A stretch of 54,737 nt of DNA, filler included, from Jimgerdemannia flammicorona (Eukaryota), in the NCBI GenBank assembly GCA_003990765.1. It is 2 parts of 2 records of this genome, joined end to end, with 100 filler letters (N's around TTAATTAATTAA, not from the genome) between each part and the next. Parts side by side here need not be neighbours in the genome. Positions count along the whole stretch, not along the records: positions 1 to 27,320 come from RBNJ01000640.1; 1 more part is not named here. One strand, written 5' to 3'. The translations under genes were made by a program, and so were the position numbers. Of this stretch, positions 1 through 51,122 are shown one piece after another (position 1 is the first letter of the stretch; every line of letters begins with the position of its first letter). The notes below the pieces were generated by a model. The model did no database searches. It saw only the letters and a list, made by a program, of their open reading frames with translations, and was not told the DNA's origin.

Positions 1-3
1 AAA

Positions 4-79
<76 letters not shown>
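1..79 (+). repeat. poly(A) tract, probably a non-LTR retrotransposon tail
   Basis: Near-pure A run at the window start, next to decayed LINE-like sequence. Confidence 0.7.
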
Positions 80-81
<2 letters not shown>

Positions 82-776
82 CTACCTAGATAGCATCTAA
101 ATCTATAGATAGTGTAGCAGTTATTAGTATAGTTAAATTAGTCTTATATAATATAACTGTGAACTAACTCAGCAGTTAGACAATCTCTTGATATGTCAGA
201 TCACACTTATACTATATAACTGCATTCTGATTCAGTAAGACACTAAGTACTATATTTATATTTAGTATAGTCTAGATAGCTTCTTACTAGTATAAATATC
301 CCCTCCTCTAGATCTCAGAATCTCAGACTCATATACATAAGAACAATCCTATAATATCCTTTTATACAACTACTTCTAGTATAGTAATATCATAAATAGC
401 AAATAAATCTATTTAATAATCCACAAACTACTCTTAAGTAAATCTACTCCTCATTAGGTCTCACTCTTAACTATATTATAAAATTTCCTAATTGAATATT
501 ATCTGCAGTAATATACCAATTCAACTAAGCTGGCTTTAGTTTTTTGAACTTTCTAAAATATAGAAAATCCTAAATATTCAGAACTAGTCCAAATAAGAAC
601 TTTGGTTAAGATGTCAATTTAATTTTAAAATTAATAAATATAGAGAATATACTCTATATGAAATTGATCTTAATCTTAAGAAAACAGTCTTCCAGAATAT
701 CTAGAACTTTAAGAAAACTCTTTTAGAACTATATAATAGTTACTTTAATAAGTAACTCTCTTATATGAAATCTAGG
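80..776 (+). mobile_element. Heavily C>T/G>A-mutated fragment of the LINE-like repeat also present at the right end of the window
   Basis: 371-776 aligns almost without gaps to the reverse complement of ~54335-54737. Extension to 80-370 is assumed from similar composition. Confidence 0.65.
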
Positions 777-779
777 TTG

Positions 780-2700
780 TAAGATTTAATAATATAATAT
801 TTTTCTAATAGTAGATCTGATATTATTATTGATTCTTCTCTTATATTATTATATGTTTTTCTTTATATTTCATTTTCAATTTTCTTTTTATTTATAAGTT
901 TTATAAGATCTCAAGCTAAATTGAGCTGAAATATATTCTAAGTCATTGTCAATCTGGTCATCTGATATATCAGATATGAATTGATGATTGCTATATCTAA
1001 TAACTAAAAGAAAAGTAGTATCTAAGTCTAAATAGCTATAATCTATATATTGTAATATATATAATATTAGTTAGCAATATTGACTTCTCTCATATAATAG
1101 TTATAATCATAATAACTTTTGGAATTGCTAGTTCCTTTTAGATATCATTTTTCTAGGTTTTTTGAACTTATATAGTATTATTGATAGTAGGTCTTAGATG
1201 ATATCTATTATGTATAATCTTCTATTCAGCTTCAATAAGTTTATAAATAGTTGTTAATATATACTATTATCTATCTATAGCAATGTTAGAATATTATCAA
1301 CTATTATATCTAAGATTATATTCTAATCATATATTGCTTTTTTACTAATCTTAAGTTATTTTGAGAATTTTTTTGACCTCTGTCTAACTATTCTATATAC
1401 TCTAATTCTCTTTGATTATAGATATTTAAATAATACAATACTGGAGAAGTAATTATCTATATAGATATTAAATATCTATATATTGAGTAGCAACTGTTCA
1501 ATGAGATGAATAATAGTAGATACTATTTTACTAAGCCTTTTAATCAACTTAACTTCTCTATTATTGATAGTATACAAAGTTCTATATATGACTATAATTA
1601 TATAATATATTAATATTAAAGCCTTTACAGATTGGTTTACATTTATATCAGTATATATATGTATATCTTTACTTTTACTTGAAAATTATACAGTCATCTC
1701 ATTGATCACTATATTGAAACTTGAGAGATAGATTGATTAGAAAGTTTTTTAGATGTAAGAAAGTAGTAGTTCAAGCTTTATATAATAGTCTCTATTATAA
1801 ATACTATGCAGGAAGATGTAAAGGTATTGTTTGATTTATTGAAACCAATAATAAGACATATATTTAAGTATTCTATATACTGGTTTTTGAATATTATTAT
1901 TCCATATCTAGTCCAGATCTCTGTCTATATGGAAAATACCAAAGTATATACAAATAGTGATGAAGATAATGAGTTCTGATATCATTAGATCTTTCTACAT
2001 TCTGCTAGTCTCTCTGGAACCCTTGACTGCAATATAATAATTTATATTAATAATAATAGTTTTCAGCATTATGTCAGAAAAAAAGAGATGAAAAACCTCA
2101 ATAATAGATGAGTTTTTACTAAGATAATCAGGAAGAACAGAGTATTTTGAGAGAATAGGTTTTGTGTATTTGAGATATATAAAGACAGAAATATTAAATA
2201 AGGCTCATTTTTTATTCTTTTCTTTACTAGAGTCACCATTGTTCAATTTAGTAATTGATACTATTGATAATTTGTTTTTGTCTATCAATAATTTATTTTT
2301 ACCTATTGATGATTTGTTTTTACTCTCCTTTGGTCTTTCTCTCTTTTGTTTAATAGTTTCATTGATATTCTATATTATCTGTTTTTCTTTTTCTTTACTG
2401 AAGGACTTGCTGATAGATTTATCAATATATTTATCAACTAATTCATTATTATAATTATTATTATCAAGGTCTTTAAAGTCATCAAGTTACTCATCATCAG
2501 TTTTATCAGTTTTGTTAGTTTTATCAGTTTTATTATATTGAAACATATTGGTTTTGTTATTGGTTTCATCATATTAGAATATATACATATGAGGTAATAA
2601 AGATTATATGAGGTGAGTAGGCTTTTATTTTTTTTATTAGTCACTATATCCTTTGTTTATTATATCTTTTATTTACTACATCCTTATTTACTATATCCTT
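780..2700 (-). mobile_element. Decayed piggyBac-family (DDE_Tnp_1_7) transposase relic
   Basis: Minus-strand translation across stops gives piggyBac motifs in order: YMSYYWFQ*IKQYL (~YMSRNRF..IKRYL), NIVINEMTV*FSSKS (~VAIDEMMVRFSGRS), KPICKGF, IYIDNYFSS, L*IDN (~WMDN), DYNYYMREVNIAN*L (~DYNHYMGGVDIADQL), LLDIAIINSYLIY. Core is ~900-2150; an acidic N-terminal relic lies at ~2400-2600. Ends not resolved. Confidence 0.85.
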
Positions 2701-2736
2701 GTTCTCTTTATTTGATAATCATAGTAATATATAGCT

Positions 2737-2850
<114 letters not shown>

Positions 2851-3968
2851 CCCATCCTACATATTCGATCTCAATTGTTTGTACGATGGCTTGTGCCTTG
2901 CATATTATAAATTTTTATTCAACTTTGGTACATGAACGCTTCCTTACGGTCTCTTCCGCGTTCCCTGTCTGGATTTCTACCGTGGTCCGCACACTGTGCC
3001 TCCGCTGTTTTTGGATAATTGTATCATAGCCCATTCTCCCACTCTTACTCTCGTCACATTCGTACAGTTCGGTCTATTTACGCTGGTATGGAAGTAGCCA
3101 TCCATTTCCCTGTGACGACTTTTCTTTATCTTCCCCTTCGACTTCTCTTTTTGTATGTATGTATATATAGAGAGAGGTCGTTTAGATCCTCGATGGTTGA
3201 CGTCTATTTCAGCTGCACCATCCTGCGATAGTCCTGGATATATTATATATTTTTATCACACCTGGTTGAACAGTAGGCGCTCGTCCAACATATCAATATT
3301 GGAAATTTGCGGTTACGTGGGGCAATGGATAAGTGGACGCATAATGGTGGTCTCTTTCAGCACCTCTCTCTCAAAAAAAAGGTAACTCTGTTCCACAGTA
3401 AGATAGTCCAAGAAATGCATTGCTGCGCTGTCGTAGGGAAGTGGAAGGCTAATTATTTTCATATTCCCAATCCTGGTGTTATGACCATTTCTCTCCACTG
3501 TATTGTATCTCTCATCTGTGAAGGATAAACCCCGTGGAAAAATAATTACAGCACATCATTAATCATCGAGTGTCCTCGCTGACTTCCATCTCTATGGGGA
3601 TTAGACCACAATACACATGCCAAAATTAAAGGACACACGATCGATGCATTGACGTGTAAAATAAAGAAAGAGAATGAAATTGATTGAATTTTATACGAGA
3701 TTGATTCTCATCTAAAGCGGTATAATTATAATTGAATATGTGGAACATATTCGCCTGCTGCAGAGAGAACAGGATATGCGGAACAAGAACAGAATGTGTA
3801 TGGTCAAATTTGCAAATTGACATGTGGGAATAAATGTTACAGTAGGAATCAAAAAATCGACCCCAATGTGCATTTATGCCGGTACATTCCCAAAATCTAT
3901 GTATATCAATTGTCTAGTTCTCGATGATAATGCCGCTTACCGTCACGAATTCCCCTCTGTTGTCACTG

Positions 3969-5159
3969 CTAAGATGAGTTGGTAGTATGGTAGACCATAT
4001 AACCTGGCAGGCCATACACACCGAATCCCATGGCTTTAGCCATTTTGGCAAAGCCTTCGGTTTCCATTTGATGCTGAAATGGGTAGGCAGGGAAATTGGC
4101 ACCTTCGCGATGAACTTGGGCTTTCACAAGCGTAAAGGTACCACCGACACCATCCAGTGGGAACTTCGCGAATTTTCCCAAATGGGTAGGCATATCGATC
4201 AAGAGCAAACGGTGCGTGACGAATTCCCAATAGCCTGACGAAGCAAAGTTTAAATGAAATGTGAGCTTCATAGCTACCTAATTGTTGGCAATATGACACA
4301 AATAGTCGTTCATACCTTCGAGAAAAACGAAGTCAGGATCAAGATCTTTCTGGAGGGCGAGAGACTCCTCCGTCTCTTGCCAATTGTTTTTGTCATAACC
4401 CCAGAATTGACCGTCTTCGCGCTTCAACAGACAGTTGGGCACCACGACGTCGACGTTCACGCTCATCAGATCCTCCAAGACGGTCTCCGGATAATCAACA
4501 ATGTCCACATCAAGCCACAGTACCCACGAGTGCTCCTCGTTGAGGGCGGTATTCAGCAAATAATTACGAGAGCGGGCCATTACAGAACGCCTAAGGGGTT
4601 GTAACGCATATGTGTGGCGTTTGTCCTCCGGCAGTTCATAATGGAAGTCTTTTTCGAAAACTTGGATGCGATGGAAGCGATCCGCGCGGTTAGGGCGGTT
4701 GAGGAAAATGTCGGCGTATTCTTTGAGCATTTGAACAGTATCGTCGGTAGTGTCGGAGACAAGAAACGCGATGGAGATGAGCTCCTTCGGATAAGATAAG
4801 CGATCAAGCAACTCAAAGTGGCGTCCGAGATACGGAGAAGCATTCTTGAGAGGTGTAAGAATCAGGATATGTTCCCTTCTTTCTTTCGGGTGGGTGGTTG
4901 CGTTGAGAGTGTTGAGATTGAGGAACGTGAATTGACTAGGGACTAGAAAAGCCGCTTCCATCTCTGCTGGGTTTGTTGTTGTCCAACGATTATCCGTACA
5001 CTGAGACTCCCAACCGCGACTACTCGGACTCAAAAGGGCGATGTAGATCACTGCAATACAGATCGCAGACAAGATGGCGACGAGAAACCGCTTGCTCAGT
5101 CTAACGTTGCTCGAGAAGACCCGCGAGGTCTTCTCATATACGCTTGTGTTAAACATCAT
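3969..5159 (-). CDS. Anp1/Van1/Mnn9-family (GT62) Golgi mannosyltransferase subunit; exons 5159-4316 and 4234-3969
   Basis: Type II TM anchor, ILILTPLKN, RRSVMARSRNYLL, WVLWLDVD (DxD), LDGVGG, HREGANFP and ETEGFAKMA motifs. An 81-nt GT..AG intron (4315-4235) restores the frame (EGYWEF). Paralogue identity within the family not resolved. Confidence 0.92.
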
Positions 5160-5880
5160 CTATGAGTGTTCCTCGAGAAAGTTTTTTTGGCGGTATTAAA
5201 GTATTGTACTCTGAAGGATCTAGATGACCAACACATTCATAAAAGACCGACCACCACTGTGTAACCCACACGTCAATTAAGAGTGAACGCGCCGTGTGCA
5301 ACTAGTTCGTGGAAAAGCCACATATTCCACATATTGCTTGCACTTTTGTAATCTAGTAGACTCTACCATTGGCCGAGTTGCTTGTTCCATTTTTGCCGGA
5401 TGATCCTATGTCAGTTTAATTATCAAACGTATTTTATTTTTTATTTTTAAGTGCAATGCAGCAGAAATCGTGTACAAGCTATACGATGTCAAAAACAGAA
5501 ACAAAGTGTGCAATCTAAAGAAAAGATCAATGCTACAATTTCTCCAAGCAGAATGCATTGCTAGAATCCCTTCTATTGTTATCTGGATCGAGTTCATTCA
5601 GTTAGTTGGCCTATAATTTATTCTTTTTTCTTAGGATTCTTCATTGGTATCGGTAGTTTCCAGTCTCTTGAAAATCCCAAAGCTTAAGCTGGTCAATCAA
5701 TGCGTTGATTAATATATCCATCTCATTGAGAGCATTAGTTATAAATATCTAACAAATATATTAAAGGTTAAATTTTGATTAGATTAGAATACTAAGGACA
5801 GCATATGAGAAGATATTATAAAATATAATTTAGTATATATTAGTTATATTTGACTTTATTTTTTTTTAATTTTTAATTTT

Positions 5881-5925
<45 letters not shown>

Positions 5926-6099
5926 ATCAATATATAACTTATTTTTTTTTTAGTAATTATTAATATATGGCTCATTTTTTATAATATATAGTAATATATA
6001 ATTCATTTTTTCCTTATTAGGCAATTGACATTTATAGCAATGATCTATATATTATATAAAGAGTTTTTCTGAAAGAGTAATAAGTTATATACATCTATC

Positions 6100-7240
6100 T
6101 TTCAATATCTATCTGTAGTTTATTTTCAGTCTTAATAAAGTTTTAGTATAATACTTTATATAGAAAATTTATTAGTAAAAGATCTGACATTTCTCAGATA
6201 ATAACTGCTATGCTAAGCCACTAAGTTATATATATATATTAATAGTTATTGTTTATGATATTTCAACATCTGTATAGGTTAATTTTTAGTCTTAATAAGT
6301 TCTATGTTGATATTTTATATAGAGAATTTATTAGCAAAGACATTATAAAAGATTTAATATTTTTCAGGTAATGACTATTCTTATTAATAGTATAATGACT
6401 TGATATATATCTAAACTAATAAAATTTGACATAGGGTTATAGGAGTCTATAAGTAATATTAAAGAGAATATGTGGTGTTAAAAGTAGGCTCTTCTTGCTC
6501 TCAAATATACTTAAAAAACCTATAATATAACTCATTCAAAGCTGTTTTTCTTTCTTCAGTATATATGATCCTAATCTATTATTTTACTATATATTACCTT
6601 AAGTAGTACTGACAAAAATATACTTCTTTCATATCTACTGTCTTCAAGGATATCTATCACTCTATTATCTCAAGAGCAGCTATAGTAGTTGAGACTAATT
6701 ATCTCTTAGTAAGGCTCTGGTTTTGTGAGATCCTCTATTTGGTTTCTTTGATAATGTTTTTGGGCCTTTATATATACCCATATATATACCCATTGTTATC
6801 TTCTATTACTTGAAAAGCCCTCTTTCCTGAACTTAAAGATATATAGTTAGAGGGTATATAAGTGAGTAGGCAGATATATAGGTGAGCAAATGGACAGATA
6901 TATAGGTGGGTATATAGGTTAGTAGGTAAAGTCTTTACTGTATTCTACTGCAATCTATAACTCTAATACTATCTGGTTTATTTTTGGCCTCAACAGGGAC
7001 TATTTTGATGCTTTATATAAGAAATTTATTAATAATAGCATTATAAGAGAACTAATATTTTTTGGGTTAATAGGTTGATAGTCAGTAGGTTGGTTGGTTG
7101 GCAGATCAGTATACTAGTCTATACTATATTCTGTACTGTATTATTATTCTTCACTATATTCTACTAATAATTAGTTCATTTTGATTTATATAGAGAATTC
7201 ATTAATAACAATATTGATATTTTTCAGGCAATAATCATAT
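6100..7240. repeat. Four dispersed copies of a ~60-100 bp motif in a decayed element
   Basis: Variants of tttatatagagaatttattag..gatatttttcagg at ~6155, ~6315, ~7012 and ~7185. Confidence 0.55.
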
Positions 7241-7494
7241 ATAGACCCTGGCTAGTATAGCTAGTAAATATAAATATTTTGTAAATATATTTACCTATAT
7301 TCATATATATAGTCTATTGCTTATATATAAAGTATAGACTGTTTTTGCTCTGAACTTTTATATATATATTTACCTATATTGGAGTTATATATATACTTAT
7401 CTTATGAGTGAGTATATATAGTATAGAGTGAGATATTTTATACTAAATATATTTATAGGCAAATTTGCCTATACTATAGAAAAAGAGTTAATGA

Positions 7495-7653
7495 TACTAA
7501 GAATATTAAATTTGGATATATATTGCTGAGTTATCAAGGAAAACATCTGACTAATTTTAGAAATTATTTGACTTATTAATTTAGAAATTTCTTTAAAAGA
7601 ATATTTTTCTTAATAGCTCAGTAATGTATAATTCAATTTTAATATTCTTAGTA
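7495..7653. repeat. Imperfect ~55-bp inverted repeat (foldback)
   Basis: tactaagaatattaaatttggatatatattgctgagttatcaaggaaaa pairs with tttttcttaatagctcagtaatgtataattcaattttaatattcttagta. Confidence 0.7.
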
Positions 7654-7845
7654 TTATTAGAAAGGCCCTATTAAAGGCTTTCAAATGATACTAAGATTAT
7701 CAAAATTAGATAATTATTTATTGAGTTATTGATATAAATATTTAATTGTCTAATTTGGAAATTAAAATAATAGTTGATCTTAATGGAATTCAATTTAAAT
7801 TCAATCTGAATTTATTTGGATTAAATTGACTTATTTAGAGCACTG

Positions 7846-8503
7846 ACTTTGAATACTACTTTTACTAAACATCAGAGACTAAAGAGTATGAGAGCTATTT
7901 GCTGTCTTATTATTAGAGTCCTTATAATAGTATATTACTTAAAATTATCAATAAAGATAATAATTAATTCATCTATAGAATACTGGTGGTCTCATATCTA
8001 TTCTGTCTAGATGTTTTAGTTTAGTTTATATAGTTGTTTGGATAATAGTAGTTGTTTATTATTCAACTTGAAAGTGAGAGATTTATTTTGAATTACCAGT
8101 CAATGAGTACTAAGTTATAATATAACAGATATCTAACCTCAGAAGTATATATAGTAAATTTCTGTATTTTGAAACTTAATTTTATTCTGACTCTTGCAGA
8201 GTCCTTAAAGTATAGAAGTATGAGTTTGAAGTATATCTATCTATAGACTTACTAGTTCTCTTACCTTCTCTTTACTTTGAACTATTTTTATCTAAGATTT
8301 ATTTACTCTAGATATTGTGATATTTATATAAGTTTGCTAGCTATAAAGTGACTAAGTTATGAGTTTTTTTTTGCAAGTATTGAATCTTTTGATATTTATT
8401 AAGATTTCAATAATTGTAAGAATTTCAATATTTATAAAATAACTGCTATTTGTAAGACTATACTATATTTGAGAATTAGATTCAAATACTGTAATCAAAT
8501 GTC
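7846..8503 (-). mobile_element. Fragment (LTR 3' part, PBS region and gag start) of LTR family C
   Basis: The reverse complement aligns with ~31610-32310, and its LTR part with 33360-33793. Confidence 0.8.
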
Positions 8504-8920
8504 TTTTTTTTTTTTTATAGTCACTTGGACTCCTCCTTTATTACACCCATCTATCTCATATAAGTACAGTGAACCCACCCCCTATTCAATTCCCCTAGGG
8601 GGGCCCCTCCTCTCTACCCCTTCTCGATGAAACACCACTCTATCAAATATAATCCCCACCCTCCCACCACTCTGTTTGCATATCCTCACCACCAAACCTC
8701 GCTATCGCCCCCCAGAAGGACCCCAACCTATCCACCATCCAGTCATCAGATCCCCCAACAGCTCCTCTCACCTTAAAACCTTCTCCTGTAGGCTCATCTG
8801 CCACCCCTCCTCAAACACAAATAGCCAATGTATCGCCAATTCTATCCAAACTACTAACACCCACCTGATAGTGAGCCAACTATCACCCACCCCCACTATA
8901 ATCAAATGTCTATTCCTCTA
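8504..8920 (-). mobile_element. 5'-truncated LINE 3' end with poly(A) tail
   Basis: T run at 8504-8517 with AATAAA (tttatt at ~8537) on the minus strand. G-rich 3' region homologous to 14460-14580. Confidence 0.65.
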
Positions 8921-9491
8921 ATTTATATTACTAATTCAGATCAACTATTATAATACATATTAATATAAATAATAATTATAAAATTAAATAATTATATTAA
9001 TTTTAAACTAGTTAATATACTATTAAATATTATAAAAAAAAGTAGACAACTATTATTAATAAAACTACTAGCTTAAACTACTTATTTTTAAATTAAGGTT
9101 TTATACTTATTTAATTATCAGATAAAATAATCTTAAAGAGTAAAATGTATATTTTTATAATTAATTATTATAAAATAAAATATAAAATAACAATATATTA
9201 AAATATCTTATTATAACTTAATTTAATATTATAAAAATTATTTATTTTATATTTTAATAGATTAAAAAATAAATAAATAAAATAACCATATATTCGTATT
9301 ACAACCATGACATTGAGATTGTTAAATTGTCAAATACATGATAGGCCGCGGTAAACTTTGTATTTAAATTTTGTATTTGAACCCAAACATTACGTAAGGG
9401 GTATTTATTTTTAATTTTTTTCGTCAACGACTTCCTCAAAACATATGCAAAACTCCGCAATCCATCAAATCCTCCGCCCCCTCACAGATCC

Positions 9492-12164
9492 CTAGTTCTT
9501 CCTATCGATTGCCGCCAACATATCCATCATCTTCCCAATCGCCAGCCTCCTCTCCAACGTCTCTCCATGCGCCTTCGACGCCTCTCCTCCACTGGTCCCA
9601 CTCTTGCCGCTCACGTCCCCGTCCTCCAAGCCTGCTGCGTCCTTGGACGCAAACCTATGCCCAAGAATGCGCTCGATCGCCTCGAGGTCTCGTGTGGTTG
9701 GGTGAAGGGGCATATCTTCCTCCTCTGCCGTCTCGCCCTGGCTATCAAATCGGAGCTGTGCGAGGGCGCGACGACCGGGCCCGCGCTCGTACCAAGCGAT
9801 GAAGAGCAGGACTGGTAAAAAGGTTATCGTTATGAAGCGACGTCGGGCGTGGCGGTAGGTACGGTGAGAAAAGAAAAGGCGCAAAGGAGTCAGGAGGACG
9901 AGGCCGATAAGGTTGAAGGGTGAGGGGAGGTCGTAACCGGCCTCGAGGAGGGAGAGGGTCTTGAAAGTAAAGCTGGTGAGGTATTCGGCCTGTGTGGTTA
10001 GTGGAAGGGTGAGGAGGAGGATAGATTGGTGAAAATGGGTGTTAAAACAGATGAAAAGTTGAATTTTTGGGACATAGGATAGGACTTCCATACCTGAGAC
10101 TTGTCGATCACGTTCTGGAACGAGGTGGCGAAGAGTGAGAACAGCAACGACTGCAGGATGACCACGCTGATGAAAATAAACATAACGTAGAGGATATGAC
10201 CAAGGATGGGGTGGAAATCGGCCGCGAGTTCGAAATCGGGGGAGCTGAGGGGCGGGCAGGTATGTGGGCAGGTTCAAAATTGGGGCACATCTTAGCCATT
10301 GGCCGAAAAGCTATCAAGCGCCAAAAATTGGTTTCACCGACATCCCTCGTAAGAACCGCCACCCACCACCACTATACGTTCACACGAAATACTCACGACA
10401 AATAACCCTGAATCAATAAACCCACGATCTTCTTAAAATCATCATGCTGCAAATCGGACCTAAGCGCTAAGAACGCCTGCGAAAACCCAAGCAGAACCCA
10501 GATGAGGAGGAAAAAAAATATGATGCCATCCTTGAACATGGACTGCAGGATGATGGCGTACGACCCGAAATAGCGCCACGAATCGAGAATGGACAGGACA
10601 CGCATCCAGAGAAAGATGGCGAGCGTGGAGAGAACATCGAAGGCTGTATTGTTGAGTTGCTGGCGGTGTTCCGAGTCCAGCGTCATCAGAGCCACGATGC
10701 GGAGGGTGAAGGCGCCGGTGAAAATGAGATAGATGAGGAAGGAGAGGCAGTTCCAGAGGGAATAGAAGTAAAAGAGGCCACCTTTCCAGATCTGGGGGGT
10801 GGGGTGGGGAAGGCAGGGTAAAGAGAATGAGAAATTCAAGTCGGGCACAGAATAGGTTGTAACGTGCCAAGAAGAGAGTGTAACCCACCTGCTGGAGCTC
10901 GTCGACTACGTTCCCGGCTACCACAATGTACACGAACCACTCCAGCAAGCCTGGGGCGGCCGTCCTCGCCTGGTTGACCACGACGGAGTACAGCACCAGA
11001 AAGAAGAGCGAGAGGATGATATTAATGATGTTCTGATATCTAATTGAGGGAGGGCATTACGCGATGAGAAATAACATCTCGATTCCATGTGGATGCCTAA
11101 ATGACCTGAAAGTATAACCTCATGCAGAATGCAACGCCCGAATCATCACCAGGGACGAAACGAAAAGTGCACTTACTTTGGCACCACCAACCGATCGGCA
11201 TTGATGAAGGCCCGTTCCCGGAGGTCGCCGTCGCCCTCGTCGACGGTATAGACAATCCTGCCGTCATCATCGGGCATGATGGCGCCGTTCCAGAGGGCCT
11301 GGAGGGTTATCGATGGGAGGGGAGGTAAGTTTCTGAGGCATGATTGGTGTGGCTCAGACAAACCGACAGATCAAACTTGATAGATACGTGGGTTTACCTC
11401 GACGCATTTGGTTACTTCAGGATCGGACAAGAAAATGGTTGCGTGCAGGTCCACTGCGAGCTCGAGGGCTGGAAGGAAGTCGTAGGGGGGAGGAGGAGGA
11501 GGAATTGGGGAGGATTTAAAAGATGGTAGTGCGTGTTGTAGTCACAGCGGCTATTTGCCGGACAAGACTGTAAAATTGGATGTATATATTACCGTCCTTT
11601 AGGCGGCCGAAACGCTTTTCGCGCTTCTTCAGCAGAACCTCGGTGAATAGATCGGTTCGACTGTTATACTTGCTGACGCTGGTGATTTTCGAGGCAAAAG
11701 AAAATAAGATTGATCTCGGGATTATCGAAGCCAATCAACAATTACCTCCCTACAAGCGTTTTATTTATTTATTTAATAATAAAAACTCACAACCGTCTCG
11801 CCAGCAATTCTGCGGCCAGCGCGCGAACGTCGAACACGTCGCTCCATTGCGGATACAGCTCGCTCTGTCGCTGGAACTTCTCCATGCATCTGAGAGCGCA
11901 GTATGGAAGGCTGTTGCGGTCCTCGCAGACGGCGCATGCGTCCTCAATAAACTGATCGGTGATGACGGAGGAGTCGCGCGGGGTGATCAGGGTGCGGTCT
12001 GTGGCGGGTGTGATGGAAACAGTGATGTAGGTGCGGAGGTTGTGAATGGAGGTGCGGACAGGGCTGTCGTGCCATTCCTCGGGTTCCGGGCGGCTATAAC
12101 GGCGGTGGAGGAACTTTGTGGGCGGGAGGAGCGGAGCCCGCTCGTGTGGGCTCGTGGTGGTCAT
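9492..12164 (-). CDS. YVC1: Vacuolar TRP cation channel, Yvc1/TRPY1-like (multi-exon)
   Basis: Spliced model: ..ELLARRF|VSKY.., ALELAVDLHATIFLS, ALWNG, RLVVPK|YQN, six hydrophobic segments (SLWN, LWMRVLSILD, YFGSYAIIL, PAFEFAADF pore loop, SLLFSLFATSF) and PSPFNLI in the C-terminus. GT-AG introns traced for the first exons. Confidence 0.85.
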
Positions 12165-12374
12165 GGAGGGGGAGAGGAGCAGGGACTGTTATTTGTGAGG
12201 CATCGGCTGATTGACATTTTTTTAAGGGAATGGAGCTCGGCGTGGGAAAGAGGGTTGCGGTAGTGCGTCATCTATATTATACAGAGCCAATTCTCTTGGC
12301 ACGGAGAGGGAGCGAGCAAAAGCGACGCGTTTGTTTGCCTATGGATAAGCCCGAAAAAGCGCGCGGCCGAAACC

Positions 12375-13822
12375 ATGACGCCGAATTTGATTTGTTCGAG
12401 CCATTCTAAGTTCGTACCCAGCCTTTTCAGGGACCGTGTATGTAGCATCGTTCCTTCCCCTCACCTCACCTATTCCCTCCCTCTTACACACCATGTTTAC
12501 TCCCCTCCTTGTCTTCATCTCTGCCCTTCTAGAGAAAACACCCCACCCTTCCCCGGGCCCCGACGAGGCCGTCGTCGACAAGACCACCTTCCACATCGGC
12601 TCTCGCAAGTCCCAACTGGCCCTGGTGCAGTCCGAACAAGTGCAAGCCCAGTTAACCAAGCAGCACGCGGATCTCGATTTCCCTATTGTGACCATGTCAA
12701 CCTTGGGCGACCGCGTGCTGGACCTGGCCCTCTCCAAGATCGGCGAGAAGTCGCTCTTCACCAAGGATCTCGAGGTCGCCCTCTCCGACCGCCGCGTCGA
12801 TCTCGTCGTCCACTCGCTCAAGGACCTGCCTACCGTTCTACCAGAGGGTATGACCCTTGGCGCTATCCTTAAGAGGGAGGACCCCAGGGACGCCGTCGTT
12901 ATGTCGGAGAAGAACCAGGGGTTGACCCTCGCCACCCTGCCCAAGGGGAGCGTGATTGGGACAAGCTCTGTGAGGAGGATCGCTCAACTTAAGAGAGCAT
13001 ATCCAGACTTGGAGTTCATGGATGTGGTATGTTCTGGGTTGATAGTGCGGTGACTCGGGAATTGAGTTTTTCCTTTGAGATTTGTTTATGGATTTGGCGG
13101 TGCTTGAAGATGCCATCCAAACATGGGCATTATAATCACGCCTCCCCTTGACATCAATTCCTGTCCATAAATCTCATCCTCTTCCCCCTCTCCCCCCCCC
13201 CCAAAAAAAAAAATAAAAAATAAAATAAAAAAAAATAAAAAAAAAATACTCCCGTCATTTTCAGCGCGGTAATCTCAACACCCGCCTCACCAAGCTCGAC
13301 AACCCCTCTGGCCCTTTTTCCGCCCTAATTCTCGCCGCTGCGGGCCTCATCCGCCTGAATTGGTCGCACCGCATTTCCGAGTATCTCGCGCCTAGCATTT
13401 CCCTTCACGCGGTCTCACAGGGCGCACTGGGGATCGAGTGCCGGGCCGACGATGCCGAGACGCTAGAGTTGCTCCGGCCACTTAATGATCGTGATACCGT
13501 GCTCCAGTGTTTGGCAGAGCGGGCGTTATTGCGTACGCTCGAGGGCGGATGTAGCGTGCCCATAGGGGTGAACTCGTGGTTTGTCGGGGAGGAGAGAGGG
13601 CCGAGGGAGCTGAAGCTGAGGGGCGTGGTGGCCAGCCTCGATGGCGCGACGGCCCTGTATGCGGAGCACGGGGTCAGGGTCGGGTGGGAAGCTGAGATCG
13701 AGGAAGAAGTGGCGGCGGAGTTGGGGAGGAAGGTAGCTAGGGACTTGTTGGAACAAGGGGCTGGGGCAATTTTGAAGGAGTTAACGAAGGGAAGGGAGGT
13801 GATTGGGGCGGCTGCGACTTGA
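12375..13822 (+). CDS. HEM3: Porphobilinogen deaminase (hydroxymethylbilane synthase)
   Basis: [43 protein letters not shown]; intron 13027-13264, then [26 protein letters not shown] carries the dipyrromethane Cys. Start and first exon uncertain (12375 vs 12493). Confidence 0.95.
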
Positions 13823-14429
13823 GAGGGGTAATAAAAACATTGGTGATTGTGGAGTTGCAACTACTGTCTTTTGTCCGTTGTAATTCTATTTGTCCACTTG
13901 TTTCTCGTTTAAATGGCCATAGGCTTCGTAAATGCTGTACATTTTAAAACAATAGAGGTAAAGACTGCACACAAACCTACAATAGACGAATAGAGTGGAT
14001 TTAGGAACGCATGTATCTTCCATGGCTAACGACTGGTCGACCCGAACCTCCCCCAGTCCCAGAAAGAAACGTGCGCGCACTCTCGGGACTTATTTGACCG
14101 ACCTCAAACGACACGTCAACAACAACGATGACGCATACTATATAATTAGGAGCCGACGGGGTGTTTAAGATTCACGATGGCGGCAATAGGGGCGGAGACT
14201 GAGGCGGAGGCGGAGGCGGAGGCGGAGGTGGAGGCGGGGGGCGAAAGTGGAGGCGCTCGCGCGGTGCAAGATGATAGATTGGAAGAAGGTTTCAAGAGAG
14301 TACTGACAATGGGTATGGGACAGGGTGTATAGCGAGACGGTGAAATATGGAGCGTCATCACTTTGTCAGCATCGTCGGGTGATTTTATAAGAGGGTTTCG
14401 ACAAAACGGGGCTTATGGTGTTCGCTATC

Positions 14430-15260
14430 TGGTCAGCAATCCACCCTCAATCTTACCCAATCCCCCTGGAGGGTCCCCCACCCCCTCATGGTTGAAAGAA
14501 ACCACCCCCCCAACAATCAGAATCCTCCCTCCACTCTTCATACACATCTTCTTCACCAAATCTCAGCAAAGATCCCTTCTGTATTCTCACCCAGTCTACC
14601 ACCCATTCAATAAGTCCAACATTAACCACTCCCACCATATCATTCTAGCCTCCAGGGATAACCACTGGTCCTCTCTCAAAAATATACAGTCAATGTCCAG
14701 ATAACCCAACCTATACAGCAAAGGCCTATCTCACCAAAAGCTACTTATCTCTCACTCATCTCATCAGATGTGATTGAAGAGCATCTTATCTTCCCCCCTC
14801 TATCCTTGCAGGCCACACTCTTAGCTAACTCTCAATTATTAATTAGAAATTTGACAACACTATATTTACCTAGCTAGTATTCCAGAGTCTGTATCACACT
14901 GTCCTCCTGCTCTATATTGAAGTACTCTTTACAGTCAAACAACCCTCTTTTGATCAAATGTTCTGATCTAAAATTCAGTATTATATTCTACTGCAAAAGT
15001 TACCACTACACTATTTAGAACTTAGGTGGTAGCCACCTTAATACTACTATATTTCAAGACCAGATATCTGCCTAGTTCTAGATCTCATCAATACTTATCT
15101 CTTACCAGCTCTCTAGCTATAGATCTCTTCTCTGTTTTTACTGATATTCTATATCATCTTCTAGTCAAAAGTCAACTATTGAGGAGCCTCTCAATAGAAG
15201 ATAATTCTACCATCATATCTTTAATCCTATCATCAGTTCTATCTCTCTTTGTCTCTTACT
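14430..15260 (-). mobile_element. LINE ORF2 C-terminal/3' relic
   Basis: CpG-depleted; homologous to 8590-8720; decayed zf-RVT-like segment (QTLEY*LGKYSVV ~ ET.EH.L..C) near 14860-14900. Confidence 0.6.
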
Positions 15261-15650
15261 AAAAAAAAAAAAAAAAAACTAATGGTCTACAATTCTCTCA
15301 ACTGTTCAATAGAATTATAGCTCAGATATATCTTTTTGAGGTTCTTGATTGTTATATATTATGGTGAAATGTGGTAATTTATTCTCACCTAGATAGAATT
15401 TCTCTACAGTATTTCAGATCTATCAGATTTTTTTATATATCATTACTATTAGTAATCTTGGTATAAAATTTTTAGAATTTTATTAGTAATTCTATAAGTA
15501 TTAGCAGAAAGAGTCAAAATAGTAGTTATAAGCTAGTATTTTTTTTTTTTAATATTATAATATTTAGAGTTGGGTAAGATTAAGAGACTGAGTTTGAATA
15601 GTGGTATGGTGAAAGAATTAGATGTTTTAAATAATTAGTAAATTATGAAT

Positions 15651-15651
<1 letters not shown>

Positions 15652-15742
<91 letters not shown>
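15652..15742. repeat. ~90-nt poly(T) tract at a repeat/gene-island boundary
   Basis: Seen directly. Confidence 0.9.
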
Positions 15743-16809
15743 CTGTATATTTTTATTATTTGTTATAATTTGTTATTGCTTTTATTTATTTATTTATTTG
15801 ATTTGATTTATTATAAAATACACTCATCACTCTTACTATGTGTGCTGTAAGCAAATATATATTTACCTTGACTATTAAAGAGGCCAGAATGCAAATGAGA
15901 AGAGACAATGAGGAGGGGTGGCAGCAAAGAAAATAAAAAGGGTGAGGATGAGGAGGGCAAGACCCAAACTGTTGCTTATCAGTCTGCTTGCTACGAGACA
16001 CTTTTGCAACCCCTTCCACTTTGTATGCAGTTACTCATAACAGAGGATAGTGTGAAATTGTGAACCGAGTTTCTTCATAAATGGTGCAGACTCGTGCCTT
16101 CATGGTGACATGGCGGATGGCCAAGATCGCGTCGGGCGTATATTCGATCCGCCCATTCCGCAATCGATTTGTAGGAAGTATAAGGACGGTTACGGGAGGC
16201 AGAGAGAGACGCGAAGAGGGAGGTGAAAGGGAGGCATCCAGGAGGATTTTTTTTTTCCTTTTTTGACATGAATAAAGCAGAATGGTGGGATGTTGCTTTT
16301 TGGATCGGAGACGACGCTTACAATAGATAAGGGGCATTGCGCTGTTGGGTGTATGACTAAGCATTCCATCCGAAATCTCGTCTAGTCATTGCAGTTTGAT
16401 CGGACCACTGCCAAGTGACCGATAGAAGATACTGTCACTCAAACATTGTCAAATCCCTTCTGTCGTAATGTCTAATGACAATATCGCAGAAAGGCGTGTG
16501 ACCATCGTGACACCTTTGTAGCTTGTTCTACTCTGTCAGAAGCTTAGGGTTTTAGGTTCCGACCAGTGTATCACAATGCATGCTCAGTCGTTACTGCTGC
16601 CTGAACATGCCCTAACGTCGTCTCAAAACCTCTTGCAATTTTAACGTGTGCGTCTTAATATTATCTTATCTCTTCTTTCAATCTGCATTTCTCTGCGAAA
16701 AGAGCCTCTTCGGGTACACGTTAATTAATGTAAACATCTTTGAATCCATGTCGTTTTAGGTGAAGGAAGTATTGAACATATACTCATAGGCCGTACAACC
16801 GGCGTGGTG

Positions 16810-16817
16810 TGACGTCA
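16810..16817. promoter_or_regulatory. Perfect CRE/ATF palindrome TGACGTCA ~1.4 kb upstream of the PKA catalytic gene
   Basis: Exact 8-mer match only; function untested. Confidence 0.25.
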
Positions 16818-18242
16818 TAGCGACCAGAGTACTGGGCCAGAGTAACAGAAACACTTGTAACCCTTCGCTCCTCCCGACAAACCTGAGGTGCCACATGACC
16901 ATGACAAAATGTCATGTCAAAGTAGAAAGAGGGTGTCATTCACATTTGCGTTGGACCTCGTTTGACCGTGTTGGCATCGTCACGAACAGTGTTCAGATTC
17001 CATCGACCTAACGCAGAGTCTCCATCGCGCAAGGGACATCGACATCGCGCGGTTCAGTTGGGTTGCACGACGTCTTGGCACCCCGAACATCGCGCCTGAA
17101 TGGATCCTCCGCGCTTGGGTCCGTCACATGGTTCCACCGCGACGCCCTACCCGTTGTTCGAGCGAGCCGTGCCTCTCTGCACCCTGCGTCGAGATCTTGG
17201 GGGGCAAGCGGGGAGCCTCGAAAGCGGAGATCGTAATTACACCACCATCGGAATTTGGGAATCCGTGCGACGGTCGGAGGCCTCGTCGGTCGCGCAGGAG
17301 ACCCCGCAACGGATCGACATCGAGTTTTAACATGTTGTACTGAAATTAGGACATGTGCAGCTGGTCTTCGCGATTATGAAGAATCTTGGCAGTGAATTTC
17401 ACGAAAGGGGGAATAATGCGCATGAAGAAGGGGAACGAGACACGAATGTGAACAGGTGAAAAAAAAAAAAAACCCCCCTGGCATGTTGCTCGTCTGTTCC
17501 CATCTGGGAATGGATGAACTTGATACTTGCAAGTAATGTAGGGTTGGATTGGTTATATTCGAAATTTGTGGCTAAATATATCATTTGGCATATAGGTTCG
17601 TTTGGTGTGGCGCATCGGATATTGCGCCAGTGTCATCCAGATACTGCACCTACGTGACACGCAACACTCAACGAACAATCGCAATGGGGTATGGGGTGTG
17701 GCTTGAATCAAGCCATGGTATCATCTGGGGCCCTGTAACTTTGGGGGAGGGAACGCATTGTTCTGATACAAGCTAGTGTGTCTTGTGTGATGTACTTTAG
17801 ATTTAAGGTGAAAGACGTGAACGATAAGATGGCAAGGATGGCAAGGGAACACAGATGCATCACATAGATGACACGGGACAAGGCGAGGGGTGTTTGGTAC
17901 CTGGCATCAAAAAAACATTTTTCACAGTCTCGACCAGCTTGTAGAACCTTTTCTGGCGGGCGCGTGCACTACTCCAATTGCCAAAAAGCTGCGCTCCTCT
18001 TTCTGCACCCAGCCCTCTTCTTTGTCTTCGGCGCGCTTCGCCAACCCGTTGGAGGGAAAGTGACTGTCTCTCGGGACCCCGTATTTCGGTATTTCTACGT
18101 TGCGACACAAGCAACCCCTTCACCTGCAGCCGCACGCCCTCTTTCTTTCACCGCTCTGTCGCGCCGCCTTTACTTATTCCGTCTCCGCGTCCTCTCTCTC
18201 CCCTCCCCATTCTCCCTCCCGCCATCGTACACTTCGTAAAGC

Positions 18243-19845
18243 ATGTCAATATTTTTTACCAAAATTATTGATAAAGCCAAGCAAGCTTCCCAGGGCCATA
18301 TTCAACCGCAAGGTAGCGAAAACAACGTGCAACCATCCGCCTATTCCTCATCCTCCGGCGATGGAGCCTCAAACGCCCACCGGGGCAGACGAAGATCAAC
18401 CTCGTTTTCTCATTCTGCTCTCATCTCCACCAGCCACCGCTCCTGGTCTACCTTTGTCCCCCCCAGGGTCGTCACAGAACAGTTTCAGCAACGCTCCACC
18501 CAAGAGTGACGAGGACTCAAACCGCATGAGCGTGGACGAGTCAGGTGTGTTGAGTGGCCTCGGGTTCCCACGGGGGCTCGGGTTCGCAGATGAGGCGCCA
18601 CCCCTTGCGTCCGTGTTTATCGTTACCCAGGTTGCTGGATACGTCCCTGTACGGGTTCGCCCAAGCAATGAACCAAACCGATCAAATTAACTAATCACGC
18701 GTCAACCTTCGGTCGCGGGCAGACTTCCAGCCTATGCAGCTTTCTGACTCTATGCCCCCACCCAGCACCATACCTCCAGCGAAACCCACTCCACAGCAAC
18801 CCCCACCGCAACCCACCATGGCCCAGCCAGACCAACCGATGGTGCTCGAGCAACAGCAACAAGGTAACTAACAGATTGTTCAGGATAGATTCTGAACTAA
18901 CCAGTTCGGAAATGTATGGGTGAAGAGCGGGCACTTGGCGTCGGAGCTCATGCTAAAATTACCGGAACAACATGACGACCCCACGATCTGACGATAATCT
19001 CAGGACAGTCCGCGATTTGACCGAAGCCAACACATCGATCACCCAATCTCAGGAGTGGACTAAGTGCATCTCACATACAAATCATTCCCCTCTCCTTACC
19101 CAACTATCCACACTTGACTGCATCACCCTCAGAACGACTCACACCGGTCACAACACCGAACTCTCCCCCACTGACTCCCACCACCCCCACAGTCCCTTCC
19201 GTCCCGGCGAACGTTCCCGTCTCCTCCAATCCAAGCGTTACCATCACAGAACTTCACAGCACGTCCCCACCCTCAACCTCAACTCACAACCCCCCCACCA
19301 CCGCTGCGCCCACCGTCGTCCCGACCGCTAGCACCTCGCAACAGAGCAACGGCGGTTCCGTCGGCGCCTTCAACGATGCCGGTATGATCGCGCAGCGGCA
19401 GTCCCGTCCCAAGCTGAAGTTAGCGGATTTCCACCTCTTGCGCACACTGGGCACGGGTTCGTTTGGGCGCGTGCATCTGTCGCAGAGCCGGGTAAACCAT
19501 CGGTTCTACGCCATCAAGGTCTTGAAAAAGAGCGAGGTCGTGCGACTGAAGCAGGTCGAGCACACGAACAATGAGAAGCACATTCTGGAGAAGGTGGCGC
19601 ATCCGTTCCTGGTCAATTTGTGGGGAACCTTCCAGGACGATGGTAATCTTTACATGGTGATGGATTATGTGCCGGGTGGCGAACTATTCAGTGTTTTAAG
19701 AAAAAGTCAGGTGAGATTTTTTTTTTTTTTAAAAAAAAATAAAAGCAAAACAAACCCAATCATTCATATTTATTACGTTCCACACCTTTGCCAATTTTTA
19801 TCATTATTTTTGGTGGTTGTGTCAATCTATTTCAATTTATCGTTA

Positions 19846-19937
<92 letters not shown>

Positions 19938-23620: not shown

Positions 23621-23667
23621 TTTTGTTGCAGCAAAGTGAATAAAGTGTCAAATTCAGTCCCGTGGGA

Positions 23668-23675
23668 TGACGTCA
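23668..23675. promoter_or_regulatory. CRE/ATF palindrome TGACGTCA in the short RRP46-CET1 intergenic region
   Basis: Exact match ~65 bp upstream of the likely CET1 ATG. Confidence 0.35.
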
Positions 23676-23739
23676 CGGACGAGGTTATGTGTCCATATCT
23701 CAACAAAACCAGGACTGCGTCTCCCTTTCTTTCACTACA

Positions 23740-27320: not shown

Positions 27321-27420
27321 NNNNNNNNNNNNNNNNNNNNNNNNNNNNNNNNNNNNNNNNNNNNTTAATTAATTAANNNNNNNNNNNNNNNNNNNNNNNN
27401 NNNNNNNNNNNNNNNNNNNN
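27321..27420. other. Assembly gap with artificial TTAATTAATTAA linker
   Basis: N runs flank a six-frame-stop spacer at 27365-27376. Confidence 0.95.
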
Positions 27421-36840: not shown

Positions 36841-36873
<33 letters not shown>

Positions 36874-51120: not shown

Positions 51121-51122
51121 AA

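Follow-up and report, generated by a model that had tools for sequence, protein, structure and literature searches.

Directional, context-ordered C-to-T mutation restricted to repeats in a window of a Mucoromycotina genome

RIP is treated as a speciality of ascomycetes, and the lineage considered here has been described mainly by 6mA. A kingdom-wide screen published in 2025 reports, in the excerpt cited here, RIP-like signatures in ascomycetes only (PMC12543289), and the relevant passage of a 2021 paper states, citing another study, that no RIP signature was detected in Mucoromycotina (PMC8647823). On the distribution of RID the accounts differ: one survey, as excerpted, restricts it to Pezizomycotina (PMC9963178), whereas another paper describes it as present in AM fungi and lost in sister Mucoromycota (PMC8298701). 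According to the same survey excerpt, Endogonales and Glomeromycota have DIM-2-like homologues and some Mucorales have DNMT1 (PMC9963178), and a DIM-2 homologue is reported for Phycomyces in a passage of PMC13297926. For Zymoseptoria tritici, the cited part of PMC8016269 reports that Dim2 promotes C>T in repeats; the legend of a supplementary figure of that paper gives non-CG 5mC as highest at CA, followed by CC, with CT almost devoid of it. Neurospora DIM-2 is described as CpT-preferring in excerpts of PMC13297926 and PMC8016269. For the TpCpG hypermutation of Pucciniomycotina, methylation-driven deamination was left as an alternative (PMC3318451). In the literature covered by our own search, mostly main texts outside subscription journals, no report of a C>T signature of a RIP-like or non-CpG kind was found for either Mucoromycotina or Endogonales.

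Here we analysed a window, i.e. the whole stretch of DNA under study, of 54,737 nt. The changes between its repeat copies are C>T/G>A, directional, limited to repeat territory, continue after integration and depend on the 3' but not on the 5' neighbour of the cytosine. The best explanation, to which we assign a probability of about 0.55, would be a repeat-restricted cytosine methylation of the DNA-methyltransferase type (3'-neighbour-dependent) that is coupled to C>T, be it by passive decay or by an active RIP-like process. Strong, directional and context-ordered C>T in the repeats, and only the repeats, of a Mucoromycotina window, extending far past CpG sites, contrasts with the view of such mutation as exclusive to ascomycetes.

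Window make-up and host placement

The window consists of two ~27.3-kb contigs, 1-27320 and 27421-54737, with an N/stop-codon spacer between them; positions 27321-27420 comprise 44 N, TTAATTAATTAA and another 44 N. In line with this, the window's own Anp1 protein appears among the protein matches as encoded by a contig of 27320 nt. The features of the window are given below.

1..2865, no strand: CpG-free AT-rich block (0 CpG vs 34.8 expected, GC 0.22) that includes the left copy of the dispersed repeat and is flanked by A79 (1-79) and T112 (2739-2850)
371..776, + strand: dispersed repeat, presumably an LTR, in its heavily mutated (left) copy; GC 0.24, 0 CpG
2900..5650, no strand: control gene island with Anp1 mannosyltransferase; CpG o/e ~1
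5704..8624, no strand: CpG-free AT-rich block (0 CpG vs 41.5 expected) that includes the repeat copy 7847-8507
7847..8507, - strand: second repeat family, copy A; GC 0.24; its relatives 31584-32308 and 33334-33785 lie in the second contig
8900..14400, no strand: control gene island with YVC1-like and HEM3; CpG o/e ~1
14424..15993, no strand: CpG-free block (0 CpG vs 38.3 expected) with T91 (15652-15742) near its 3' end
16000..27000, no strand: control gene island with PKA-type kinase, RNase PH/RRP46-like and others; CpG o/e ~1 including introns
27321..27420, no strand: artificial spacer
27421..30500, + strand: Ty3/Gypsy fragment (RNase H, integrase); GC 0.42, CpG o/e 0.12
30637..42677, no strand: 12 kb of AT-rich relics and satellites; one CpG (38761) vs ~228 expected
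31584..32308, + strand: second repeat family, copy B; GC 0.30
33334..33785, + strand: second repeat family, copy C; GC 0.30; 40 transitions and 6 transversions vs copy B
42154..43276, - strand: LTR 1 of a degenerate Ty3/Gypsy element; GC 0.37
43300..51100, - strand: internal region of the Gypsy element (gag/protease, dUTPase, RT, RNase H, integrase) with stops and frameshifts
51125..52030, - strand: LTR 2 of the same degenerate Ty3/Gypsy element
54332..54737, - strand: less mutated (right) copy of the dispersed repeat of 371..776; GC 0.40, 7 CpG remaining

Copies 371-776 and 54332-54737 each lie near the end of their own contig and, as the two contigs are joined by an artificial spacer, are physically unlinked. 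A '53.6 kb inverted repeat' formed by them was therefore dropped as an artefact of concatenation; the mutation counts are unaffected by the joining. The right copy is cut off by the end of the window and contig, and the repeat boundary lies at ~54343-54345.

Contigs of two runs from the same organism were matched to 42000-54737 at an identity of at least 80%. Compared with the window, run X1 (367 contigs) displayed 212 transition and 28 transversion places and run X2 (479 contigs) 265 and 41, respectively. The depth in X1/X2 was 690.6/3212.8 in the bin 54325-54737 and 0/0 in 53900-54324, with loose ends at 54343. A search for more copies of the dispersed repeat by a degenerate 32-nt repeat pattern yielded 0 loci among the metagenome contigs. 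From runs X6 and X4, 3 and 1 contigs matched, all of them at 50588-50630, which has no bearing on habitat or copies; the small shares of root and soil runs likewise provide no evidence on either.

The preliminary description had considered that the genome might lie outside Dikarya. Among the best 120 of 193 matches of the Anp1 ORF, every one that names an organism comes from Mucorales or Umbelopsis (44-67% identity), and the best named match among the matches listed is Lichtheimia hyalospora with 67%. These matches place the genome in Mucoromycotina, outside Dikarya; it is not an ascomycete. The HEM3 fragment does not discriminate between phyla: its top match is Bifiguratus adelaidae (52%), with almost the same scores for Dikarya and chytrids.

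Direction and sequence context of the changes

In an ungapped alignment of 371-510 with the reverse complement of 54598-54737 (140 nt), 29 differences had been counted by hand, 27 of them transitions and 24 of these C>T/G>A with the T/A in the left copy. Our count is identical; read from the right to the left copy, the 24 comprise 16 C>T and 8 G>A, and the remaining differences are three T>C and two C>A. The full pair, which a repeat search also recovered as I1 (393 nt, 80%), shows 83 differences in 403 aligned columns, namely 72 transitions and 11 transversions. Transitions with T/A in the left copy outnumber the reverse by 65:7 (binomial p = 7e-13), corresponding to changes at 65 of 158 C/G sites compared to 7 of 244 A/T sites.

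This extreme asymmetry, accompanied by only 11 transversions in 403 nt, would agree with a true RIP-like defence. In such a defence, either homology or heterochromatin would mark DNA as duplicated, and a RID/DIM-2-type enzyme or a deaminase would then hypermutate it C>T in active bursts, during mitosis or the sexual cycle; methylation would follow from this instead of causing it. Two classical RIP indices have thresholds of at least 0.89 for TpA/ApT and at most 1.03 for (CpA+TpG)/(ApC+GpT). Both copies of the pair satisfy them, the left copy with 1.25 and 0.74 and the right copy with 1.17 and 0.94, which also favours a RIP-like process. On the other hand, a runs test on the C>T and G>A events of the pair detected no clustering by strand (32 runs vs 30.7 +/- 3.7 expected). 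Together with the points raised below, this leads us to consider a true RIP-like defence rather unlikely.

A further candidate is that retrotransposon cDNA was edited by an APOBEC-like enzyme prior to integration, comparable to the action of host deaminases on retroviruses. Against this, 42 C>T and 23 G>A are interleaved on one strand without runs, at roughly the ratio expected from the copy's 103 C and 59 G. Such editing would agree with the presence of LTR retrotransposons among the affected elements and with the dUTPase domain of the Gypsy element. A retroviral dUTPase domain is linked to uracil avoidance. However, satellites and non-coding relics are CpG-free as well, and further contrary evidence from sequence context and the LTR pair makes this explanation highly implausible.

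When seven aligned repeat blocks were pooled (329 transitions, 77 transversions), the fraction of changed cytosines depended on the 3' neighbour: 18/18 at CpG, 169/325 at CpA (0.52), 57/129 at CpC (0.44) and 85/424 at CpT (0.20). The heterogeneity among CA, CC and CT is pronounced (chi-square p = 1e-19). Because sites that used to be CpG raise the CpA rate, only the contrast of CpC over CpT is clean (odds ratio 3.2, p = 1e-7). The 5' neighbour had no significant effect (AC 0.34, CC 0.45, GC 0.39, TC 0.35; p = 0.13), which is a further point against APOBEC-like editing; all of the only 18 CpG-context sites in the pooled blocks are changed, so that they carry no contrast between TpCpG and other CpG. 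The 'unusually broad context' claimed beforehand is thus real in its breadth but has to be qualified as ordered, CpG >> CpA ~ CpC > CpT, and confinement of the changes to CpG did not occur. The heavy mutation outside CpG would agree with a RIP-like defence; against it stands that the first target is CpG and not CpA. At non-CG sites the order matches a Dim2-type preference (CA > CC >> CT).

Since LTRs are identical at integration, all differences between 42154-43276 and 51125-52030 (83 transitions and 27 transversions in three aligned blocks) arose afterwards. They follow the same context order as the pooled blocks (CpG 5/5, CpA 45/120, CpC 15/54, CpT 18/127), which contradicts an editing of cDNA prior to integration. 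Within the same element, whose overall GC is 0.40 and CpG o/e 0.04 (42154-52030), the RT-RNaseH stretch 45219-46421(-) of 401 codons was polarised against related proteins, so that C did not have to be assumed ancestral; the nearest named relatives of this RT come from Rhizopus and Rhizophagus. Comparison with the nearest relative, P0124 (311 aligned residues), revealed 91 mismatches: 53 single GC>AT transitions, 6 multiple changes that are all GC>AT, 8 AT>GC transitions, 21 transversions and 3 others. Three further relatives gave GC>AT:AT>GC ratios of 56:3, 51:8 and 60:9. Among the placeable RT changes, 18 of 51 (P0124) and 23 of 55 (P0123) are located at CpC or CpT and, given this position, are certainly non-CpG. 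The stretch contains 8 stops in its 401 codons. The claim that the stops of TEs derive from CAA, CAG, TGG and CGA codons was checked in this one TE: six of the stops could be aligned to P0124, where 3 correspond to W (TAG), 2 to Q and 1 to P, and one more corresponds to R (TGA) in P0123.

Across six repeat pairs, transition:transversion counts vary between 46:24 in the 8144-8510 pair and 40:6 in the 31584-32025 pair. Bursts of a RIP-like process could yield such a spread, but the low ratios are found where both copies have a GC of 0.23-0.24, and saturation suffices to explain them without bursts. Three-copy parsimony in the second repeat family (382 columns) returned 49 GC>AT, 30 AT>GC and 23 transversions, with no direction in the two sister copies (15 GC>AT, 19 AT>GC, 3 transversions). 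Parallel hits are the most likely reason for this; as parallel hits at hot sites make polarisation by majority rule unreliable, parsimony was not used to determine direction.

Repeats versus genes

The repeat or TE territory of the window (34,794 nt) contains 46 CpG compared to 936 expected (o/e 0.05), whereas the gene islands (19,253 nt) contain 1139 compared to 1121 expected (o/e 1.02). This confirms the earlier observation that TEs are stripped of CpG while neighbouring genes keep it, and the CpG landscape is also bimodal by 500-nt windows. Unique AT-rich non-coding DNA within the gene islands has o/e values of 1.07 for CG, 1.06 for CA, 1.20 for CC and 0.81 for CT; in AT-rich repeats the values are 0.01, 0.87, 0.88 and 1.50. 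TpA o/e amounts to 0.80 in the former and 1.15 in the relics. The C>T signature is hence absent from this unique control, which covers ~4 kb, was picked by low GC, adjoins genes and may be under constraint. Its absence there would agree with a RIP-like defence. With an evidence base of two contigs and few repeat families, a restriction of the signature to repeats is supported at the scale of the window, in the sense of an association with repeats as distinct from an induction by repetition.

These data also bear on an ordinary neutral decay, according to which a strong AT mutation bias would act genome-wide, only the loss of CpG would be specific to TEs because CpG alone is methylated, and old copies would drift to ~22% GC like other non-coding DNA. 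Unique intergenic windows are indeed equally AT-rich (9001-9500 with GC 0.20 and 2501-3000 with GC 0.24, both with a CpG o/e >1), the GC of relics levels off at 0.19-0.25, and CpG is the fastest class. Yet unique DNA and relics carry the opposite dinucleotide signatures listed above for CpT (0.81/1.50), CpC (1.20/0.88) and TpA (0.80/1.15). In the copy pair, CpC was changed at 20/44 and CpT at 10/57 sites, and this combined 30/101 compared to 7/244 reverse transitions is too extreme a bias to sustain a GC of 20-33%; by our own arithmetic the pair rates imply an equilibrium GC near 5%, far below unique non-coding DNA. In addition, the odds ratio of 3.2 between CpC and CpT calls for an agent that reads context. 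We therefore judge neutral decay improbable.

The composition of the repeats does not fit a RIP-like defence throughout. Pooled AT-rich relics are borderline, with a TpA/ApT of 1.09 and a (CpA+TpG)/(ApC+GpT) of 1.07, and TEs with 40% GC fail both RIP indices (0.73-0.84 and 1.44-1.51, respectively). Further evidence against it comes from the literature, namely RID being reported only from Pezizomycotina in the excerpt of one survey (PMC9963178) and RIP-like k-mer signatures only from ascomycetes in that of the kingdom-wide screen (PMC12543289).

Repeat-restricted methylation coupled to C>T would account for these observations as follows. Repeats and transposons of this Mucoromycotina genome would be selectively cytosine-methylated, not only at CpG but at CpA and CpC as well, and the methylated cytosines would be converted to thymine. 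CpG would be stripped first; subsequently, copies would be driven from ~45% to ~22% GC and their reading frames filled with stops. The putative agent is a DNMT1-superfamily set in which DNMT1/DNMT5-type enzymes would act on CpG and a DIM-2-like one on non-CpG sites, and the mutation step may be the deamination of 5mC, either spontaneous or enzyme-promoted. The suggestion of a repeat-targeted C-deamination or methylation defence outside Dikarya is supported, its wording spanning both remaining mechanisms. The more specific proposal of an active repeat-directed C-to-T mutator in Mucoromycotina, a RIP-like defence by a DIM-2/DNMT1-type enzyme with the order CpG >> CpA ~ CpC > CpT, is possible but doubtful on the present sequence data. 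If true, methylation-coupled repeat hypermutation would predate Dikarya or would have arisen twice, and the mutator would be missed by CpA-based RIP indices and AT-k-mer screens.

Comparison with known systems

If the pattern extends genome-wide, it would provide a tractable case in which to ask if DNMT1-superfamily enzymes acted as repeat mutators before RID evolved, explain AT-rich CpG-free compartments beside genes of 50% GC, and serve as a warning that CpA-centred RIP indices under-detect CpG-first variants. Even a mere by-product decay of non-CG 5mC would still document a mutation pressure of the non-CG methylation type in this lineage.

The pattern resembles the RID-dependent RIP known from Neurospora crassa and further Pezizomycotina, which also has a DIM-2-dependent branch, in the C>T/G>A changes of repeats, their AT-richness, the stops and a rate set by the 3' neighbour. 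As in canonical RIP, which duplication triggers in the premeiotic dikaryon, transitions dominate (329 vs 77) at the scale of the window, in repeats and not in the ~4 kb of unique AT-rich DNA. The TpA/ApT and (CpA+TpG)/(ApC+GpT) indices give a mixed result, as both copies of the pair satisfy them and moderately mutated TEs fail them. In contrast to canonical RIP, the host belongs to Mucoromycotina rather than Ascomycota. Canonical RIP also prefers CpA according to the cited excerpts (PMC12543289, PMC8016269), whereas here CpG is hit first and CpC like CpA. The CpT preference described for Neurospora DIM-2 runs counter to the low rate at CpT, the least-hit context here, and counts against the explanation that we favour.

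The 'mitotic RIP-like' process of Z. tritici is similar in its repeat-restricted C>T, which the cited part of PMC8016269 ties to Dim2, a member of the DNMT1 superfamily with methylation activity at non-CG sites. The methylation order given there for Dim2 (CA, CC, almost no CT) matches CpA ~ CpC > CpT in our window. Unlike in Z. tritici, where in the same excerpt more than 98% of C>T fall on CA and CG is spared (PMC8016269), CpG was exhausted first here (18/18). Either two or more activities or another preference of the putative enzyme thus have to be assumed, which counts against the explanation that we favour.

The TpCpG hypermutation in Microbotryum and related Pucciniomycotina is likewise a RIP-like, CpG-centred C>T in TEs outside Ascomycota, but its signature needs a 5' T (PMC3318451), whereas across all contexts of our pooled blocks the 5' neighbour shows no significant effect, and changes are frequent outside CpG as well. 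A passive decay of methylated CpG, as described for Agaricomycotina (PMC3318451) and in the excerpted Rhizophagus irregularis methylome (PMC8647823), likewise leaves TEs but not genes depleted of CpG. The excess of TpG/CpA in our TEs of 40% GC, with a (CpA+TpG)/(ApC+GpT) of 1.44-1.51, is a further similarity to such decay. However, passive CpG decay spares other contexts (PMC3318451), whereas here CpC and CpT together were changed at 30/101 sites in the copy pair and at 142/553 sites in the pooled blocks.

Layout of the two contigs and their elements

The window of 54,737 nt consists of two contigs, 1-27320 and 27421-54737, connected by an artificial spacer at 27321-27420 (44 N, TTAATTAATTAA, 44 N), so that distances and orientations across it are meaningless. 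A protein search assigned the Anp1 protein encoded here to a 27,320-nt contig. Two repeat families are common to both contigs (371-776/54332-54737 and 7847-8507/31584-32308/33334-33785), which therefore belong to one genome. On contig 1, gene islands of about 50% GC, whose genes were identified by Pfam, alternate with AT-rich blocks of about 22% GC; contig 2 carries transposons and their relics nearly throughout.

4278-5159, minus strand: Anp1 mannosyltransferase
13229-13822: porphobilinogen deaminase
19733-20770: PKA-type kinase
In the gene islands: YVC1-like fragment; RNase PH domain
27421-30500, contig 2: Ty3/Gypsy RNaseH-integrase fragment
42154-43276 and 51125-52030, minus strand, contig 2: LTRs of a degenerate but full Gypsy element
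40100-41390 and 34136-34330: satellite of a 38-nt unit, an array of about 1.2 kb and a short second patch, AT-rich, no CpG
39513-39672: satellite, 16 copies of CCAGTACTAC, AT-rich, no CpG
34500-35120 and 36280-36620: satellite arrays of a 17-nt unit, AT-rich, no CpG

The interior of the Gypsy element encodes protease, dUTPase, RT, RNase H and integrase. The dUTPase domain lies at about 47018-47393 (minus strand) between protease and RT and is split across two frames (PF00692, E = 5e-7 and 2e-6). A retrotransposon-borne uracil-avoidance enzyme is notable where repeat cytosines get mutated.

The poly(dA:dT) tracts of the window are extraordinarily long:

1-79: A79
2739-2850: T112 with 2 interruptions
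5855-5919: T-rich run, longest pure stretch T37 (5883-5919)
15652-15742: pure T91
19848-19937: T90
27311-27320: T10, terminus of contig 1

Three tracts lie in or at the edge of CpG-free repeat blocks near the adjoining gene islands, and one lies in what appears to be an intron of the gene for the PKA-type kinase. Contig 1 begins and ends in tracts of this kind, which therefore probably break the assembly. Boundary elements, retroposon tails and polypyrimidine tracts driven to T are candidate explanations.

Restriction to repeats and direction of change

The preliminary description held that transposons are stripped of CpG while genes are not, and the counts bear this out: repeat territory (34.8 kb) contains 46 CpG against 936 expected, gene islands (19.3 kb) 1139 against 1121. 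CpG-free blocks of 1.6-8 kb stop sharply at the gene islands. The key control was about 4 kb of low-GC non-repeat stretches (introns, promoters) within the islands. Observed/expected ratios in this unique AT-rich non-coding DNA were 1.07 for CG, 1.06 for CA, 1.20 for CC, 0.81 for CT and 0.80 for TA, compared with 0.01, 0.87, 0.88, 1.50 and 1.15 in AT-rich repeats (16.7 kb). Because the neighbour signatures are opposite at similar base composition, an AT bias acting across the whole genome is not a sufficient explanation for the repeats.

The hand count reported for 140 nt of the dispersed repeat at 371-776 (left copy) and 54332-54737 (right copy, opposite strand) proved exact: transitions account for 27 of the 29 differences, and 24 are C>T/G>A changes in the direction of the left copy. 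Over the full homology, 403 aligned columns contain 83 differences (72 transitions, 11 transversions). T or A stands in the left copy at 65 transitions and in the right copy at 7 (p = 7e-13), and GC content is 0.24 versus 0.40. With 65/158 C/G sites changed versus 7/244 A/T sites, simple arithmetic suggests that such a process would equilibrate near 5% GC. Transitions and transversions in the other five repeat pairs number 40:6, 99:22, 46:24, 91:36 and 39:16, the lowest ratios belonging to pairs with both copies already at about 23% GC and to a gappy whole-LTR alignment. After local re-alignment, seven blocks together contain 329 transitions and 77 transversions.

Direction was also assessed without taking C as the ancestral base. 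The RT-RNaseH stretch at 45219-46421 (minus strand; 8 stops read as X) was used in a protein search and compared with its four nearest relatives, each mismatch being scored by which single nucleotide change would turn a codon specifying the residue of the relative into the window codon.

Mismatches between the RT-RNaseH stretch and its relatives. Order: aligned; mismatches; single GC>AT; AT>GC; transversions; multiple, all GC>AT; other
P0124 (71% identical): 311; 91; 53; 8; 21; 6; 3
P0123: 399; 162; 56; 3; 41; 9; 53
P0125: 354; 150; 51; 8; 37; 4; 50
P0126: 385; 184; 60; 9; 42; 6; 67

Six of the 8 stops have a counterpart in P0124 (W three times, all TAG; Q twice; P once), and one more (TGA) stands opposite R in P0123. 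Placeable GC>AT changes fell at CpG, CpA, CpC and CpT 12, 21, 11 and 7 times against P0124 and 14, 18, 16 and 7 times against P0123. Three-copy parsimony in the second repeat family was uninformative on direction, because parallel changes at hot sites mislead majority rule.

Sequence context and candidate mechanisms

With the right copy as ancestor stand-in, the left copy changed at 13/14 CpG, 22/43 CpA, 20/44 CpC and 10/57 CpT. Pooled over the seven blocks, with each C/T column counted as ancestral C, 18/18 CpG, 57/129 CpC and 85/424 CpT were changed, as were 169/325 CpA, a rate inflated because a former CpG is scored as CpA where one copy now has CpA and the other has TpG or TpA. The three non-CpG classes differ (chi-square p = 1e-19); the contrast between CpC and CpT (odds ratio 3.2, p = 1e-7) is unaffected by this miscounting, and the order CpA ≥ CpC > CpT is independently backed by old-relic dinucleotides (CA 0.87, CC 0.88, CT 1.50). 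Such a strong, ordered non-CpG component is not explained by a CpG-only maintenance enzyme. Pure neutral decay, which fits poorly, appears improbable.

The 5' neighbour was without effect (pooled rates 0.34-0.45, p = 0.13). A rate set by the 3' neighbour and indifferent to the 5' one is the pattern of processes linked to a DNA methyltransferase (RIP, 5mC decay) and is not known from AID/APOBEC-type deaminases. The LTRs of one element show the same order (CpG 5/5, CpA 45/120, CpC 15/54, CpT 18/127), which indicates that it arises post-integration. C>T and G>A events in the left/right pair are interleaved (32 runs; 30.7 ± 3.7 expected). Editing of cDNA also fits poorly and is very improbable.

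We favour, with a probability of roughly 0.55, C>T mutation coupled to repeat-restricted methylation of both CG and non-CG cytosines. CpG methylation of transposons would cause CpG to be lost first, and non-CG methylation of repeats would add the ordered non-CpG component. An active, duplication-triggered RIP-like process would suit the extreme asymmetry of the left/right pair, both copies of which are positive by RIP indices; however, CpG was targeted first and transposons of 40% GC are negative by these indices, and we consider such a process rather unlikely. The evidence base for methylation-coupled mutation and its rivals is two contigs and a handful of repeat families.

Host lineage, further copies and known systems

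The Anp1 ORF had 193 matches. All organism-named ones among the best 120 were from Mucorales or Umbelopsis. The best named match among those listed was Lichtheimia hyalospora (67%), and one Logan protein reached 75%. The HEM3 fragment matched Bifiguratus adelaidae (Endogonales-affiliated) best at 52%; it adds little to placement, as chytrids, Mortierellomycotina and Dikarya score nearly equally. The closest named relatives of the RT were Rhizopus and Rhizophagus. From these protein matches we conclude that the host is a member of Mucoromycotina without a close annotated relative and lies outside Dikarya, as the inference in the preliminary description required.

Two sequencing runs of the same organism (X1, X2) contain about half of the words from a gene stretch. 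Their contigs are probably transcriptomic; they cover part of the genic stretch and are missing from most of the Gypsy interior. At an identity of at least 80%, 367 (X1) and 479 (X2) contigs aligned to 42000-54737, mainly over the LTRs and 54325-54737. Depth over the latter was 691 and 3213, versus 0 and 0 over the adjoining 53900-54324 (425 nt); the right copy's family is very abundant and probably transcribed. In X1, 212 places differ from the window by transitions and 28 by transversions (X2: 265 and 41), and the changes go both ways, so that the transition excess belongs to these repeat families and not to one pair. The boundary of the right copy lies at about 54343. At 54343-54320 (minus strand), TGGGCCC... 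begins 2 nt past the repeat end ...TTACA, an arrangement that looks like an LTR end and primer-binding site; a short or truncated element may therefore have the right copy as its 5' LTR. Pfam domains were not found in the three minus-strand frames of 52900-54737.

Full-text searches, with most subscription journals and supplements outside their coverage, did not turn up a signature of this kind described for Mucoromycotina or Endogonales. DIM-2-like genes are reported from Endogonales and Glomeromycota and DNMT1 from some Mucorales (PMC9963178), and a DIM-2 homologue from Phycomyces (PMC13297926). A kingdom-wide k-mer screen describes RIP-like signatures in ascomycetes only and concludes that CpA preference is common to such defences (PMC12543289), and Dallaire et al., citing another study, state that no RIP signatures were detected in Mucoromycotina (PMC8647823). 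Horns et al. read an excess confined to CpG as passive 5mC decay and a context-specific one as RIP-like (PMC3318451); by this yardstick, the window's repeats fall on the RIP-like side. The closest documented parallel is Dim2 of Zymoseptoria tritici (PMC8016269): functional Dim2 increases C>T in methylated repeats, and non-CG 5mC is highest at CA and next at CC, with CT almost unmethylated (supplementary-figure legend). CG is spared in Z. tritici, whereas it is lost first in the repeats described here.
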